This document shows, piece by piece, positions 25,972 through 31,713 of a DNA stretch of 64,000 nucleotides. The number at the start of each line of letters is the position of its first letter. Within the stretch, counting starts at the first letter, position 1. This DNA comes from Pseudomonadota bacterium. GTDB lineage: Bacteria > Pseudomonadota > Alphaproteobacteria > Caulobacterales > Caulobacteraceae. The notes under the pieces were generated by a model. The model was given only the letters and a program-made list of their open reading frames with translations. It searched no databases and had not been told where the DNA came from. The stretch lies in contig JAKBBV010000009.1 in assembly GCA_021808285.1 (NCBI GenBank), positions 952-64,951 of the forward strand. Reading direction: 5' to 3'. The position numbers and the translations under genes are program-made.

Positions 25972-27138
25972 ATGATCCCTAACCCTGGTCCGACCCTGGA
26001 TTTCGGGCTCGGCGAGACGGCCGACGCGATCCGCGAGACCACGGCCCGTTTCGCCGCCGCGAAGATCGCCCCGATCGCGGCCCGCATCGACGCGGACAAC
26101 AGCTTTCCGCGCGAGCTGTGGCGGCCCATGGGCGAGCTGGGCCTGCATGGCGTCACCGTCGAGGAGGAATGGGGCGGCCTGGGTCTGGGCTATCTGGAGC
26201 ACGTGGTGGCCATGGAGGAGGTGTCCCGCGCCTCGGCCTCGGTGGGGCTGAGCTACGGCGCCCACTCGAATCTCTGCGTCAACCAGATCCGGCGATGGGG
26301 CTCCGACGACCAGAAGTCGCGCTATCTGCCCCGCCTGATCAGCGGCGAATGGGTCGGGGCCCTGGCCATGAGCGAGGCGGGCGCCGGCTCGGACGTGATC
26401 TCCATGCGCCTGCGCGCCGACCGCCGGGGCGATCGCTACGTCCTCAACGGGGCCAAGTTCTGGATCACCAACGCCCCGCACGCCGATGTGGTGGTGGTCT
26501 ACGCCAAGACCGAGCCCGACGCCGCCAGCCGGGGCGTCACCGCCTTCCTCGTCGAGAAGGGGTTCAAGGGCTTTTCCTGCTCGCGCAAGCTCGACAAGCT
26601 GGGCATGAGGGGATCGGACACCGGCGAGCTGGTGTTCGAGGACTGCGAGGTTCCGGAGGAGAACGTGCTGGGGCCGCAGAACGGCGGCGCCGGCGTCCTG
26701 ATGAGCGGTCTCGACTATGAGCGCGCGGTCCTGGCGGCCGGGCCCCTGGGGATCATGCAGGCCTGCCTCGACCAGGTGCTGCCCTATGTGCGCGAGCGAA
26801 AGCAGTTCGGCCGCGCCATCGGCGGGTTTCAGCTGATGCAGGGCAAGATCGCCGACATCTATGTCGCCCTCAACTCGGCCCGCGCCTATGTCTATGCCGT
26901 GGCCAGAGCCTGCGACGCCGGGCGGACCACGCGTTTCGACGCCGCCGGGGCGATCCTCCTGGCCAGCGAGAACGCCGTGCGCGTGGCGCTGGAATCGATC
27001 CAGGCCCTGGGCGGCGCCGGCTATCTCAAGGAGTTCCCGGTGGAGCGGTTCCTGCGCGACGCCAAGCTCTATGACATCGGCGCCGGCACCAACGAGATCC
27101 GCCGCTTCCTCATCGGTCGCGAGCTGATCGGCGCCTGA
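25972..27138 (+). CDS. ivd: Isovaleryl-CoA dehydrogenase
   Basis: [58 protein letters not shown]. Confidence 0.95.
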
Positions 27139-27146
27139 GCGCGCGC

Positions 27147-28355
27147 TCATTTAGGCTCGGCGCCGGCGACGGCGCGGCGGAAAATCGAGAGGATCAGGCT
27201 GAGGATCGCGCAGGACGCGGCCGTCAGGGTCGCATCGATCAGCAGACCCCCGTCCAGGCCGCGGGCGGCGAAGGCCAGGCCATCTATCCGCTGCATATAG
27301 GTCAGCGGAATCGAGCTGGCGGCGAAGAGGAGGCCGAACTGCGTGGCGGCGAGGGGATTGTCCCTGCCCAGGCTGTTCAGGGCGATGAGGTTGGAGACCG
27401 CGAAGGCGGCGGCCTGGAACAGGTTTTCGCCCAGGAGCGCGGCCCCGAACCCGGCGGGAGTTCGGGGAGCGGCGATCAGGAGCAGGCTGAAGCCCGCGCC
27501 GATCAAGCCGATGGCCAGATAGAGACGTCGGGGTTGGAGCCGGCCCCCGAGCGGCAGGATGGCCAGGCTGCCCACGAGGCCCGCCACGGTCACGCCCGCC
27601 CCGCCGATCAGGCCCGCCAGGGCCTCGGGCGTGTGGAAATCGCCCGCGAAGCCGGACAGCGAATTGGTCAGGGCGAAGGCCGTGGCCGGCGAGATGAAGA
27701 GCAGCAGCGTCCAGCCGACGATGGGGCGGCGCACCACCCTGATCACATCCCGGGCGAAGGCGGCGAAGCCCGCGCCCATCAGGCGCGCATCGGCGGAAGG
27801 GCAGGGGGTGAGGGCGAAGAGCGGCAGGGCCAGGAGACTGAGACCGCCCAGGCTCAGCGCCCCCACCGGCGCGGGAAGGCCGCGAAAGAGCGGGATGGCC
27901 AGGCTCGCCGCCAAGCCGCCGGAGGCGATGTTCGCCGCCGCCATCCAAGACCCCGGGCGGGCCGGGGCCTCGCGCGGGACCAGCTCCCCGAACCAGCCGC
28001 CGCAGGCCGCCGAGACCATGTAGGCGGCGAAGCTGGAGACGAAGAAGAGCGCGGGCAGGAGGGGCGTGTCCCGCACGAACAGAAAGGCGCCGGCGCCCGC
28101 CGCCGCCGTGACCAGGGTGAAGAGCACGGCCCAGGCGCGGCGGGACAGGCCCCAGTCAAGAAGGGGGGCCAGAAGAAAGCTGAGGAACCCCGGGGCCAGG
28201 GCCATGGAGGTGATTTCGGCGACGCGTTCCGGCGACGTCCCCTGGGAGGCCAGGATCTGCGGCATGGTGATCAGGAGGAGGGCCCCGTTGATCCCGAGCG
28301 GCCAGAGGCCAAGTCCCAGCCAGGGGATGGCGGGGATGGCGCGCCCGCGCGTCAT
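27147..28355 (-). CDS. MFS transporter, AmpG-like
   Basis: About 12 hydrophobic helices; SFLLAPLLD motif and AATQFGL near the C-terminus resemble AmpG/PAT family members. Substrate unknown. Confidence 0.75.
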   Translation of the reverse strand: MTRGRAIPAIPWLGLGLWPLGINGALLLITMPQILASQGTSPERVAEITSMALAPGFLSFLLAPLLDWGLSRRAWAVLFTLVTAAAGAGAFLFVRDTPLLPALFFVSSFAAYMVSAACGGWFGELVPREAPARPGSWMAAANIASGGLAASLAIPLFRGLPAPVGALSLGGLSLLALPLFALTPCPSADARLMGAGFAAFARDVIRVVRRPIVGWTLLLFISPATAFALTNSLSGFAGDFHTPEALAGLIGGAGVTVAGLVGSLAILPLGGRLQPRRLYLAIGLIGAGFSLLLIAAPRTPAGFGAALLGENLFQAAAFAVSNLIALNSLGRDNPLAATQFGLLFAASSIPLTYMQRIDGLAFAARGLDGGLLIDATLTAASCAILSLILSIFRRAVAGAEPK

Positions 28356-28501
28356 CGGGCGCAGGGCCTGACGGGCCGCGGATCGGCGCCCCTCGTGCGC
28401 CTTGCAGCGGGGTTGAGCATCCCGCTCAGTCTTGAAACAATTGCAAGTCTCAGAAAAATAACCATAAATTGGAGTTTATGACGCGTGAAGCGCCAGGATG
28501 T

Positions 28502-28620
28502 GCGGCCAAATTGGCAACATTTTTGGCCGCAAATGGCAACGTCTCTGGCCGCAGATGGCGCCATGTCTGGCCACAAATGGCAACCTATTGGCCGCTGAAT
28601 GGCCACCTCTTGGCCCCGCG
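28502..28620. repeat. Phased TGGC repeat array (~11-bp period, 22-bp dimer unit)
   Basis: TGGC at 28512, 28524, 28534, 28546, 28556, 28568, 28578, 28589, 28600, 28611 (spacings 12,10,12,10,12,10,11,11,11). Alternating TGGCCGCAAA-type and TGGCAAC-type units. Confidence 0.88.
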
Positions 28621-28872
28621 CCCCGCAGGCCCCGCGCCCGCCCTGGCCCCGACGCCGCGCAGCGCTTCGCCGCCGCGACAGGGGCGAGCCGGACAGGATG
28701 GCGAAAATCGCACCGGCGCTGAAACTTGGCGAAAAAGGGTATAGAATTCGGCGTCAGGCCATATCCTACGCCTAAGACATTGCATTCCGCAAGCGCTTAG
28801 GGTTGTGGCGCCGGGCTCGATGGGGTTGGCCCAGGCCTTGGATGCGCGCTCTTGACGTTCGGAGTCTCGCGG

Positions 28873-28945
28873 CGCCGGCTGCAGGGCTCGAACCCGCGAC
28901 CTTCGCTTTACAAAAGCGCTGCTCTACCAACTGAGCTAAGCCGGC
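28873..28945 (-). tRNA. tRNA-Thr(TGT), CCA not encoded
   Basis: GCCGGCT/AGCCGGC acceptor, AGCTCAGTTGGTAGAGC D-arm, anticodon loop TT-TGT-AA, GGTTCGAGCC T-arm; followed by G-CCG rather than A-CCA. Confidence 0.95.
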
Positions 28946-29204
28946 CTCCGCGAACCGCGCGCTTATGCCCTCTCGCCCTTGGCGAGGGCAAGGGAGGGGG
29001 GTCGAATAGGGCTAACAGGCGAAGCCCGCCGTGGGTCGCGATCTGTTCATGTGCGGGACGGGTTTAAGTCCCAATGGCGCCATCACGGCCGCCAGAAGGT
29101 CTATCCGGGCCAGATGAGCGCCGTCCTGCGCCGGGCGTGACGTCTGCGCCAGGAGAGGGCGGACAGCGTGGCGGGAGTGGGGGGCAGCCGGCATACCGAA
29201 AAGG

Positions 29205-29705
29205 TCAAATCAGCCGGATGCCGAACTCCTCCCTCAACTCGGCGAGAGTTCGCGTCTCAAACTCTGCTGGCGGGTTCCACGGCCACCTCTTTTTCATCCG
29301 GAAAGCTTCGATCAGCGCCAGCACCGCCCGGGGCAACACACCTAAGGTGACGCCGAGGGCATTCAGAAAGCCTAGCTCGTTGAATATGGCCTTAGCCTCT
29401 GGATCCCGGGTCAGGTATTCGGCGTAACGTCGCCAGCCAACGTCGCAGGAAAGCAGCGTGCGGATGTCGGCCATCCCTTCGTCCGGAAGCGTGGTGTCGA
29501 GACCGAAGATCACATGGCAGAGGTCGTGACAGCGGAAGAGCTCAGCGCTGCCGGGGGCTAACGTCTCTGGTCGCGCGACTCGTCCGAGGTTCCGCGCGTA
29601 GTATTCCTCCAACCCCTCGGCCAATGTCTGTTTGGCGTCCTGGTTCTGGTATCCGGCGCCGGCCGCGTGGGCCGCAAAGCCTGGACTCAATGCAAGCGCG
29701 GTCAT
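29205..29705 (-). CDS. Coq4-like putative metalloprotein
   Basis: HDLCH-x11-E (HDLCHVIFGLDTTLPDE) matches the Coq4 HDxxH-x11-E motif; C-terminus LAELREEFGI is also Coq4-like. Codon usage looks less GC-biased than the neighbours. Confidence 0.72.
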   Translation of the reverse strand: MTALALSPGFAAHAAGAGYQNQDAKQTLAEGLEEYYARNLGRVARPETLAPGSAELFRCHDLCHVIFGLDTTLPDEGMADIRTLLSCDVGWRRYAEYLTRDPEAKAIFNELGFLNALGVTLGVLPRAVLALIEAFRMKKRWPWNPPAEFETRTLAELREEFGIRLI

Positions 29706-30000
29706 TTCCTAGACTTCTGCACTGGCGGTCAGCCCCCCAGACGTCCGGGTCGGGCTGGTCCCGCGACGGCGATAGGCCTCGATCGCTCCATGCTGAGGAC
29801 TTTGGCTCACTCGGACCCTCCGCCAGATAGCCGACAATAGCGCCGGATATGTCCAGGATGGCAAGGACGCGAAAGGCGGTTTGGTCTGATGGGCGAGCAG
29901 GGCGCTGTCCATTCTGGCCCCATCGTCCGGCCCCCACCGTCTGGGCTTAAGGCGGCGGCGAGGATATACCCCGCCCTCCCGACAACCTCGCACCCTTGCC

Positions 30001-31713
30001 ATGGCCCGCATCCTGATCACCTCGGCCCTGCCGTACATCAATGGAATCAAGCACCTGGGCAATCTGGCCGGGTCGATGGCGCCGGCCGACGTGCAGGCGC
30101 GGTTTCAGCGCGCGCGGGGGAATGAGGTGCTTTTCCTGTGCGCCACGGACGAGCACGGCACGCCGGCCGAGCTGGCCGCGCAGGCGGCCGGCATGGAGGT
30201 GCGGGCCTACTGCGACGCGATGCACGAGGCCCAGAAGGCGCTCGCCGCGGGCTTTGGCCTTTCCTTCGACTGGTTCGGGCGCACCTCCTCGCCGCAGAAC
30301 GCCGCCCTGACCCAGCATTTCGCCGACGTGCTGGAGGATCGCGGATTCATCGAGGAGCGGGTCGATCGCCAACTCTATTCCCTGGACGATCAGCGCTTTC
30401 TGCCCGACCGCTATGTGGAGGGCACATGCCCGATCTGTGGCTATGGCCAGGCGCGCGGCGACCAGTGCGACAACTGCGGCAGCCTGCTGGACCCCCTGGA
30501 GCTCAAGGATCCCTATTCAGTCATCTCCAAGAGCCGCAATCTGGAGGTGCGCGAGACCCGGCACCTTTATCTGCGCCAGACGGGGCTGGAGAGCGATCTG
30601 AGGGCCTGGGTCGACGCGCGGACCGACTGGCCGGCCCTGGCGCGGTCCATCGCCTACAAGCACCTGGACGATGGCCTGATCGACCGGGGCATCACCCGGG
30701 ACCTGAGCTGGGGCGTGCCGGTGCTGCGCCACGGCCGGCCGCGGCCGGGCATGGAGGGCAAGGTCTTCTATGTCTGGTTCGACGCCCCCATCGAATATAT
30801 CGCCGCGGCGCAGGAGTGGGCCGACGCCACGGGGGGCGACTGGACCCGCTGGTGGCGCCTGGACCAGGGCGCGCAGGACGTTCGCTATATCGAGTTCATG
30901 GGCAAGGATAATGTCGCCTTCCACAGCGTCAGCTTTCCCGCGACCCTGCTGGGCTCCGGCGAGCCCTGGAAGACGGTGGACACGCTCAAGGCGTTCAACT
31001 GGCTCAACTGGTATGGCCAGCCGTTCTCCACCTCGCATCAGCGCGGCATCTTCATGGACGCGGCCCTGGAGATCCTGCCGGCGGACATCTGGCGCTGGTG
31101 CCTGACGGCCTACGCGCCGGAGCATTCGGACAGCAGCTTCACCTTCGATCAGCTGGTGGCGGCGGTGAACCGCGATCTGGCCGACGTTCTGGGCAACTTC
31201 GTCAACCGCATCCTGCGATTCTGCGAGAGCCGATTCGAAGGCGTCGCGCCCGAAGGCGGGGAGGAGGGGCCGCTCGAAGCCCAGCTGAAGGCCGACCTGG
31301 CCGCAGGCCTGGCGGAGCTGACGGCGCAGTTCGAGGCCATGGAGTCGCGAAAATCGGCCCAGGCCCTGCGGGCTCTCTGGTCGCTCGGCAATGTCTATCT
31401 GCAGGAAGCCGCGCCCTGGACAGCGATCAAGACCGATCCGGTCCGGGCCGCGGTCATCGTGCGCACCGCGATCAACCTCGTCGCCCTCTACGCCCGCATC
31501 AGCGCGCCCATCCTGCCCTATTCCGCGGCGGCCATGGCCGAGGCGGTGGGCGAATCGAGGCTCGACTGGCCCGGAGACGACCTGGCGGCGGAGCTGGCCC
31601 GGGTCCCGGCCGGGCGGCCGGTGAGGAGCCCGCCGCTGCTGTTCGCCAAGATTGAACCGGAACAGGTGGCGATCTGGTCGCAGCGTTTTGGCGCTCCGGT
31701 CGAGGCGGCCTGA
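30001..31713 (+). CDS. metG: Methionyl-tRNA ligase (no C-terminal tRNA-binding appendix)
   Basis: [15 protein letters not shown] (HIGH), TDEHG, CPIC/CDNC zinc knuckle, [18 protein letters not shown]. Confidence 0.97.

Follow-up and report, generated by a model that had tools for sequence, protein, structure and literature searches.

In the cosB site of phage lambda (R3-R2-R1, read by gpNu1) and in the pac site of P1, the hexamers of which lie within pacA, the helix-turn-helix (HTH) of a small terminase (TerS) reads short repeated DNA words. Satellites of the SaPI/PICI type possess a TerS of their own together with its cognate site, by which a packaging machine encoded outside the satellite is made to act on the satellite DNA. 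Regularly phased repeats are also known from a different context, as the ten 11-bp phased direct repeats of R1 parC organise a curved scaffold of ParR, the product of an adjacent small gene. The recognition of DNA by ring-shaped small terminases is a long-standing question, and the natural pac sites are short, irregular and weakly bound. For the TerS rings of SPP1 and SF6 a circumference of about 300 Å has been described, in which adjacent HTHs are separated by about one turn of DNA, and a wrap of about 100 bp has been proposed (PMC4737164).

The array studied here was found in a stretch of 64 kb (the window) on contig C61 of a metagenome-assembled genome (MAG) of an uncultured member of the Caulobacteraceae, which comprises 105 contigs, is 97.75% complete and originates from mine-drainage metagenomes. 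Positions in the window equal the coordinate on C61 minus 951, and the features of the locus are listed in Table 1. The motif TGGC is found at 28512, 28524, 28534, 28546, 28556, 28568, 28578, 28589, 28600 and 28611, which corresponds to a mean spacing of 11.0 bp (99/9). Tandem Repeats Finder reports this array at 28507-28603 with a period of 22, 4.4 copies and 75% matches, and its score of 92 is the top score across the 64-kb window. The period of 22 reflects the alternation of TGGCAAC-type and TGGCCGC-type direct units, which together form a 22-bp dimer. A preliminary description of this DNA, which had reported ten TGGC motifs with a period of about 11 bp and a 22-bp dimer, is therefore borne out, and the same holds for the AT-rich stretch it had placed in front of the array, as the GC content at 28425-28474 is 34% compared to 66.7% genome-wide. 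The ten units it had listed are all there but do not cover the full extent of the array, since two inverted units precede them and three degenerate ones follow.

The inverted units read TGGCGC and TGGCCGC on the minus strand. The second of them, in the form TG(C/T)GGCC(A/G)A, marks the start of the array and is recognisable in 12 of 13 copies of the element family described below. The degenerate trailing units are covered by Tandem Repeats Finder rows at 28611-28662. On its plus strand the AT-rich head contains one match to TTGAAA-16-AAAAAT, and a search across the copies for a sigma-70 promoter at a fixed position relative to the array revealed none in common. In the DNA runs of the source study the window array is without variants, and none of the RNA-seq runs contains its sequence. 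A translated protein repeat was considered as the source of the period and was rejected: 11 bp is not a multiple of three and the overlapping ORFs, such as one of 66 aa at 28585-28785 on the minus strand, have no family match, so that a translated repeat does not explain the array.

Table 1. Features of the array locus and its flanks, in window positions.
Feature	Position	Strand	Basis or remark
MFS transporter gene, left flank	27147..28355	-	weak Pfam MFS_1 match, E=4.8e-7, below cut-off
AT-rich head	28425..28480	none	present in all copies of the sub-clade, not alignable between copies
Two inverted units	28490..28508	-	GCGCCA at 28490-28495, GCGGCCA at 28502-28508
Ten well-formed direct units	28512..28621	+	TGGC positions, Tandem Repeats Finder
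Three degenerate GC-rich units	28623..28654	+	CCGCAGGCCC, CGCGCCCGCCC, TGGCCCCGACG; in phase with the array
Spacer	28655..28779	none	site of the minus-strand terS-like gene in intact modules
Degenerate promoter box	28780..28793	none	TTGCATTCCGCAAG
Degenerate duplicate of the tRNA-Thr 3' end	28803..28822	-	TGTGGCGCCGGGCTCGATGG vs GGCGCCGGCTGCAGGGCTCGAACC
tRNA-Thr(TGT), right flank	28871..28945	-

The array lies 257 bp past the 3' end of the tRNA-Thr gene and 157 bp before the start codon of the MFS gene, for which no NCBIfam name was obtained. The MFS gene had been called divergent, which is not the case, as it is encoded on the minus strand like the tRNA. An Rfam scan of 27000-30500 (E-value mode) returned the tRNA only. 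The real tRNA end is followed, at a distance of about 50 bp, by a degenerate duplicate that an old site-specific recombination may have left as a scar. On the other side of the tRNA gene, the spacer towards metG (28946-30000) comprises 1,055 bp compared to about 125 bp in the syntenic relatives L020 and L022, which points to a second lineage-specific insertion; within it an ORF of 166 aa (29205-29705, minus strand) has no Pfam, PHROG or NCBIfam match.

While the preliminary description had proposed to look for the unit in the rest of the genome, the outcome of this search is that the window array belongs to a dispersed family. Searches by nhmmer with the window element, with an array profile and with a covariance model agree on 14 loci of one anatomy in the MAG. 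Each consists of an AT-rich head of about 50-60 bp, two to three inverted units ending in TG(C/T)GGCC(A/G)A, 10-13 units in direct orientation, 100-230 bp of GC-rich spacer and a palindromic promoter box, for which the consensus is TTGCATnTTGTCAA within the MAG, while relatives have TTGCATnnTGCAAT. The direct unit reads TGG-Y-M-R-C followed by 3-5 less conserved nucleotides. A matrix of 148 units from 13 copies gives T69 G92 G95 C64 C64 R87 C91 (in percent), the mean period over these units is 11.14 bp, and arrays of 10-13 units span 110-145 bp. The 22-bp alternation is not kept in the other copies; the conserved feature is the 11-bp unit. Pairwise identity among the copies of this genome amounts to 45-65%, yet the GG and the C at +4 are kept in phase at 91-95%. 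Chains of at least five TGGC at a spacing of 10-12 bp occur only three times on both strands of the 2.9-Mb genome, and all three belong to the family. The pattern of three consecutive TGGYMRC-N3-5 units has 14 matches in the genome and none for the reversed control; one match, on contig C36, turned out to be a false positive in a coding region.

The copies are located between unrelated housekeeping genes (thrS, guaB, argG, murJ, metG and others), and both orientations occur. In the inspection of the flanking genes of the other 13 copies no tRNA was noted. In six of 13 copies, the one at the MFS gene included, a gene starts just past the head and is co-directional with the box promoter, whereas in the other seven the neighbouring gene converges on the element. 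The tails of four copies (C89, C86b, C25, C28) contain TGGnnn-N5-TTGCAT, but a sigma-54 reading of this word was abandoned as the other tails lack the GG.

In two relatives (G010 and G020) an ORF of 121-123 aa is found between array and box on the opposite strand. The only homologue in the genome studied here is a gene on contig C25 (3305-2553, 250 aa, tblastn 3e-21), which is flanked by head, array and box and represents the sole copy with a gene still in place between the latter two. The box is located about 30-70 bp upstream of the start codon in such intact modules. PHROG families of the terminase small subunit match the ORF with E about 1e-7. A profile of the family finds the nine chains of the 'Pam5 small terminase' (PDB 21di) with E=9.5e-25, the C25 protein alone finds the same entry with E=4.9e-7, and the Pfam profile Terminase_2 is matched by 13 of 60 family members. 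In an AF2 model the C25 protein forms an HTH bundle and two long helices with pLDDT >90 for residues 1-130, followed by a disordered tail. A Foldseek search with this model gave no significant match (best E=2.2), and seven of the 31 listed chains are small terminases. Judged by its sequence the linked ORF encodes a TerS homologue. At 250 aa the C25 ORF is longer than its orthologues (204-217 aa), and its Pro-rich tail, which is predicted to be disordered, runs into the module's own array.

In total the genome harbours 13 copies without an intact gene (orphans), one intact terS-like gene on contig C25 and one solitary gene for the large terminase subunit (terL) on contig C52. Copy C86b keeps a trace of the ORF, while in the remaining 12 of 13 orphans, including that of the window, no gene is detectable; for the window spacer (28655..28779) this was checked by tblastn on contig C61, which revealed no terS remnant. 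To all appearances of its sequence the window copy is an orphan which has kept the AT-rich head, the array and a worn box and has lost the gene, and with its degenerate box it may be decaying. The promoter box is kept in most orphans.

Relatives lack the array at the corresponding site: of about 30 orthologous MFS loci (68-73% aa identity) not one carries it, and in relatives with the same order of genes (MFS - tRNA-Thr - metG) the spacer between MFS gene and tRNA-Thr comprises about 55-136 bp without an array. These short spacers indicate that about 450 bp are specific to the lineage studied here. Genome and metagenome scans for closer orthologous loci yielded at best about 70% aa identity. 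Arrays of the window unit type were found in eight of 61 genomes, with one to five per genome in comparison to 14 here, and the closest species representative, G006, possesses one gene-bearing module and no orphan.

The module is specific to one uncultured genus of the Caulobacteraceae, a widespread lineage of soil, peat and mine water. The terS-like gene is present in 39 of the 61 sampled genomes of this genus with up to eight paralogues, and was not found in a sample of 200 genomes of the class at E<=1e-12. Strong matches are solo genes amid housekeeping genes, weak matches belong to two-gene cassettes in which they immediately precede terL. About 24 of the solo paralogues, from more than 15 genomes, were inspected, and in about 18 of them a phased array adjoins the 3' end of the gene. 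The core of the unit differs among the paralogues (GGCCRC, GGCAGC/GGCAAC, GGCGG(T/C/G), GGCAGG and GGCGCG), and so do the segments before the recognition helix of the proteins (PD(R/K)xHACRLA, (P/A)G(N/H/Q)xHAxRL, GH(S/P)(S/T)RLA and HGHRHGARMA). The type of unit tracks the residues just before this helix, and on the protein tree, which is poorly resolved, the unit labels are clustered (one of 200 shuffles reached as low a value). With a tree so poorly resolved, helix and unit may vary together simply because they are inherited together. All 14 arrays of the genome, which were found with a profile of its own type, resemble the unit type of its single gene, and in L063, the orthologous module of a close relative, an array of 12 units starts closely like the window array. 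Phages with homologues (phiLM21, Pam5, DSS3P8-like) have the usual order terS-terL-portal, and no array lies beside terS in the phiLM21 terS region, the only phage region scanned.

Three TGGTCAC units with a spacing of 11 bp were observed in two genomes from another family of the order (L009/L010, in G039 and G031), about 50 bp past a tRNA-Ala(GGC) gene on the border of a low-GC island. These units resemble arm-type sites and probably have no relation to the window family.

The single, solitary terL of the genome (contig C52, 18892-20340, minus strand) is assigned to Terminase_6N and PHROG 979/2. It has a LysR gene on one side and genes for small secreted proteins on the other. The -10 element of its promoter (TTGACG-17-CATAAT) overlaps the family box, here TTGCATAATGTAAT, immediately before the start codon, and the end of the promoter 9 nt before the ATG suggests a leaderless mRNA. 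A further box (TTGCAAAATGTAAT) belongs to a gene on contig C33 (4512-5400, minus strand) for a protein of 288 aa without family match; this gene also shares the upstream element GTGGGCGGA with the terS-like gene and, going by these common motifs, may be part of the same regulon. Two families of virion proteins were searched in the 105-contig assembly, the portal family PF04860 and the HK97-type capsid family PF05065, and neither was found. Of the 61 genomes of the genus, 47 contain terL, 39 the terS-like gene and 10 the PF04860 portal family. Two terS-terL cassettes, L150 (G065:C41, 8836-11455) and L151 (G055:C33, 4149-6331), are located amid ordinary chromosomal genes; no portal or capsid gene lies near either of these two inspected cassettes, and L150 has an additional terS-like paralogue upstream. 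The PADLOC defence models match neither the TerS-like protein nor TerL. The repeats of the C. crescentus GTA were considered as a possible match and discarded, as they are 150-bp terminator repeats after terL and a different thing (PMC11150451).

We consider it somewhat better than evenly probable that the array is a cognate binding platform of about 100 bp, on which one HTH per helical turn is arranged round a TerS ring, in trans, and together with the solitary box-bearing TerL. An intact module combines the palindromic promoter box, the solitary terS-like gene and, on the opposite strand directly at the 3' end of the gene, an array of about 10-13 units, which measure 10-12 bp and share a conserved 7-bp core. 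The TerS-like protein, predicted to consist of an N-terminal HTH followed by long oligomerisation helices, would form a ring (the solved homologue is a nonamer), and the array DNA would wrap this ring with one HTH docked per helical turn, so that nine to twelve units or about 100-130 bp might make up one turn of the ring. As a nucleoprotein complex, the wrapped ring could then mark the site for the TerL ATPase-nuclease. At 14 chromosomal places this might lead to a cut or set off DNA translocation, or it might do no more than titrate the protein.

Both the spacing of the units, about one helical turn, and the length of the array, about 100 bp in total, fit this ring of HTHs. A high-affinity wrap-around site would be expected to take this form, a regular array adjacent to the gene of an HTH protein that forms rings, in which the unit varies together with the protein. 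The fact that core and box are kept while the ORF has been erased argues that the orphans are maintained rather than neutral. The general proposal of the preliminary description, a cooperative platform for a binding protein acting in trans, is the best supported one, but the Rep or integrase partner it had in mind does not fit, because the linked gene is TerS-like. Binding of TerS to the array, recruitment of TerL and any downstream DNA transaction are what we infer from these features. Several observations count against the platform reading. The array of the intact C25 module, of all copies, is the poorest and most degenerate in the genome, true phages with this TerS family keep the usual order of packaging genes and the phiLM21 region is array-less, and the structure search gave no match better than E=2.2. 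Moreover, a packaging role has no visible capsid partner, since the assembly is without a PF04860 or PF05065 match.

The array could also be an inert remnant in slow decay. It would stem from a terS-array module that was duplicated or transposed and once moved within a small mobile element, and would have no function now, a minority possibility that we take seriously. The loss of the gene in 13 of 14 copies with nothing but a trace in C86b, the degenerate box of the window copy, the absence of the element at about 30 orthologous sites and the single module without orphans in G006 would all be in line with it, and the copies in G053 look like recent spread followed by decay. In that genome five copies (L154, L157, L159, L160, L161) are 87-99% identical in unrelated flanks and have a sharp common left junction, CTAGGGG(A/G)CC, which often includes the stop codon of the upstream gene, while two of them retain only terS codons about 2-59. 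As far as such sequence comparison goes, the module is thus able to multiply within a genome and to lose its gene afterwards. Near-identical copies were found in G053 only; the copies of the genome studied here are dispersed and intergenic, one of them is gene-bearing, and this 'master' copy encodes a TerS homologue, not a transposase. They are also old according to their identity of 45-65%, and that phase and core are kept at 91-95% with the ORF erased is unexpected under neutral decay, as is a promoter box still kept in most orphans. It also counts against this reading that no flank word shared by nine own copies as a possible target-site duplication exceeds the shuffled expectation, and that in the G053 copies no convincing terminal inverted repeats were found.

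Other readings concern the neighbouring genes, a transcript or a lost mobile element. Proteins of the OmpR/PhoB winged-helix type read 11-bp direct repeats, and Pho boxes have a 7+4 architecture, to which that of the unit is similar. Such a factor, or a promoter in the tail reading through, could control the MFS gene and other flanking genes, and the co-directional gene start past the head in six of 13 copies would suit this. Control of the MFS gene had been one of the suggestions of the preliminary description, but it finds no support in the roughly 30 orthologous MFS loci, which are without an array; in the other seven copies the neighbouring gene is convergent, the flanking genes are functionally unrelated (ThrS, GuaB, ArgG, MurJ, MetG), and in relatives the arrays are linked to terS-like genes, which makes a regulatory array very unlikely. 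We regard as highly improbable a multicopy non-coding RNA from the AT-rich head or the box promoter, for example a protein sponge carrying repeated motifs. The head contains promoter-like hexamers, the box region is promoter-like as well and the minus-strand fold has a z-score of -2.5, but this signal comes from GGCC palindromes and the plus strand reaches only -1.5, there is no Rfam match, no terminator and no promoter at a fixed position across the copies were found, and a period of 11 bp suits the geometry of the DNA helix. Finally, phased direct repeats adjoining AT-rich DNA had led to the proposal of an orphan iteron-type origin or of arm-type integrase sites, the latter remaining from an island that had inserted at tRNA-Thr. 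The distance of 257 bp to the 3' end of the tRNA gene and the degenerate duplicate of this end at 28803-28822 speak in its favour. The proposal is extremely unlikely, as 14 copies exist in the genome, of which only the window copy is known to lie beside a tRNA and the other 13 are placed between housekeeping genes. The window flanks (MFS, tRNA-Thr, metG) contain neither a rep gene nor an integrase or island, no rep or int gene flanks any inspected copy and the linked gene is TerS-like. The syntenic relatives, in which an island at tRNA-Thr was to be looked for, have none.

Returning to the platform for TerS, a further step would be a capsid-less dispersed terminase system, in which solitary TerS paralogues with private pac-like arrays of about 100 bp and a solitary TerL sharing their box cut host DNA or start to translocate it at defined sites. 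We think this rather unlikely, but if true the system could feed chromosomal segments into the capsids of infecting phages or GTAs, as site-directed transduction or as decoy defence; alternatively, the terminase pair might mobilise the array elements of about 0.5-1 kb, which would explain their spread without a transposase. Regardless of this the family, with its regular conserved units and a co-varying recognition-helix region, represents a ready-made system for studying the structure of the TerS-DNA wrap and its specificity code. It also demonstrates terminase genes outside a recognisable virus or GTA, as single-gene modules and terS-terL cassettes, with gene-less sites left behind. Provided that the sites are in use, they would set the places of cutting or packaging of chromosomal DNA, with a bearing on gene transfer and phage-host conflict in an uncultured lineage.

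A full-text literature search found no description of a solitary terS with regular arrays, paralogue-specific units, capsid-less cassettes and orphans, and no system compared here combines a solitary chromosomal terS, an array of at least 100 bp at its 3' end, differing units among paralogues, capsid-less cassettes and gene-less sites. In DNA architecture R1 parC/ParR is the closest match. ParR, however, is a ribbon-helix-helix protein that works with the actin-like ATPase ParM, and parC lies upstream and contains the promoter, whereas the array of the present module lies downstream of its gene, the product of this gene is TerS-like and no partition ATPase is encoded next to it. Origins with Rep_3 iterons share the 22-bp periodicity and the adjacent AT-rich segment, but the elements described here have no rep gene, occur in 14 copies per genome and do not conserve the 22-bp alternation. 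Like SaPI/PICI-type satellites they are chromosomal and bring their own TerS with a cognate site; these satellites, however, are islands of several kb in single copy with integrase, replication and regulatory genes, while the module of gene and site comprises about 1 kb amid housekeeping genes, with up to eight paralogues per genome and with orphan sites.

As in lambda cosB and P1 pac the words are located beside or inside the gene of the protein which reads them, or here is proposed to read them, and specificity there is set by recognition helix and word. In these phages, however, only three to seven words exist, which are not strictly phased over at least 100 bp, occur once per phage genome and always adjoin the cut site and terL. 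The pac site of SPP1/SF6, bound by G1P, is similar in that a ring of HTHs about one DNA turn apart, with a proposed wrap of about 100 bp, is encoded by a terS beside the repeats (PMC4737164). SPP1 differs in having three short sets of dissimilar boxes (pacL/pacR) of weak specificity, placed at the 5' end of terS in a complete phage. The arrays of the uncultured Caulobacteraceae, in contrast, lie at the 3' end of a solitary gene and comprise 10-13 near-regular units that share a strong 7-bp core, with no virion genes nearby and with 13 extra copies that are gene-less.
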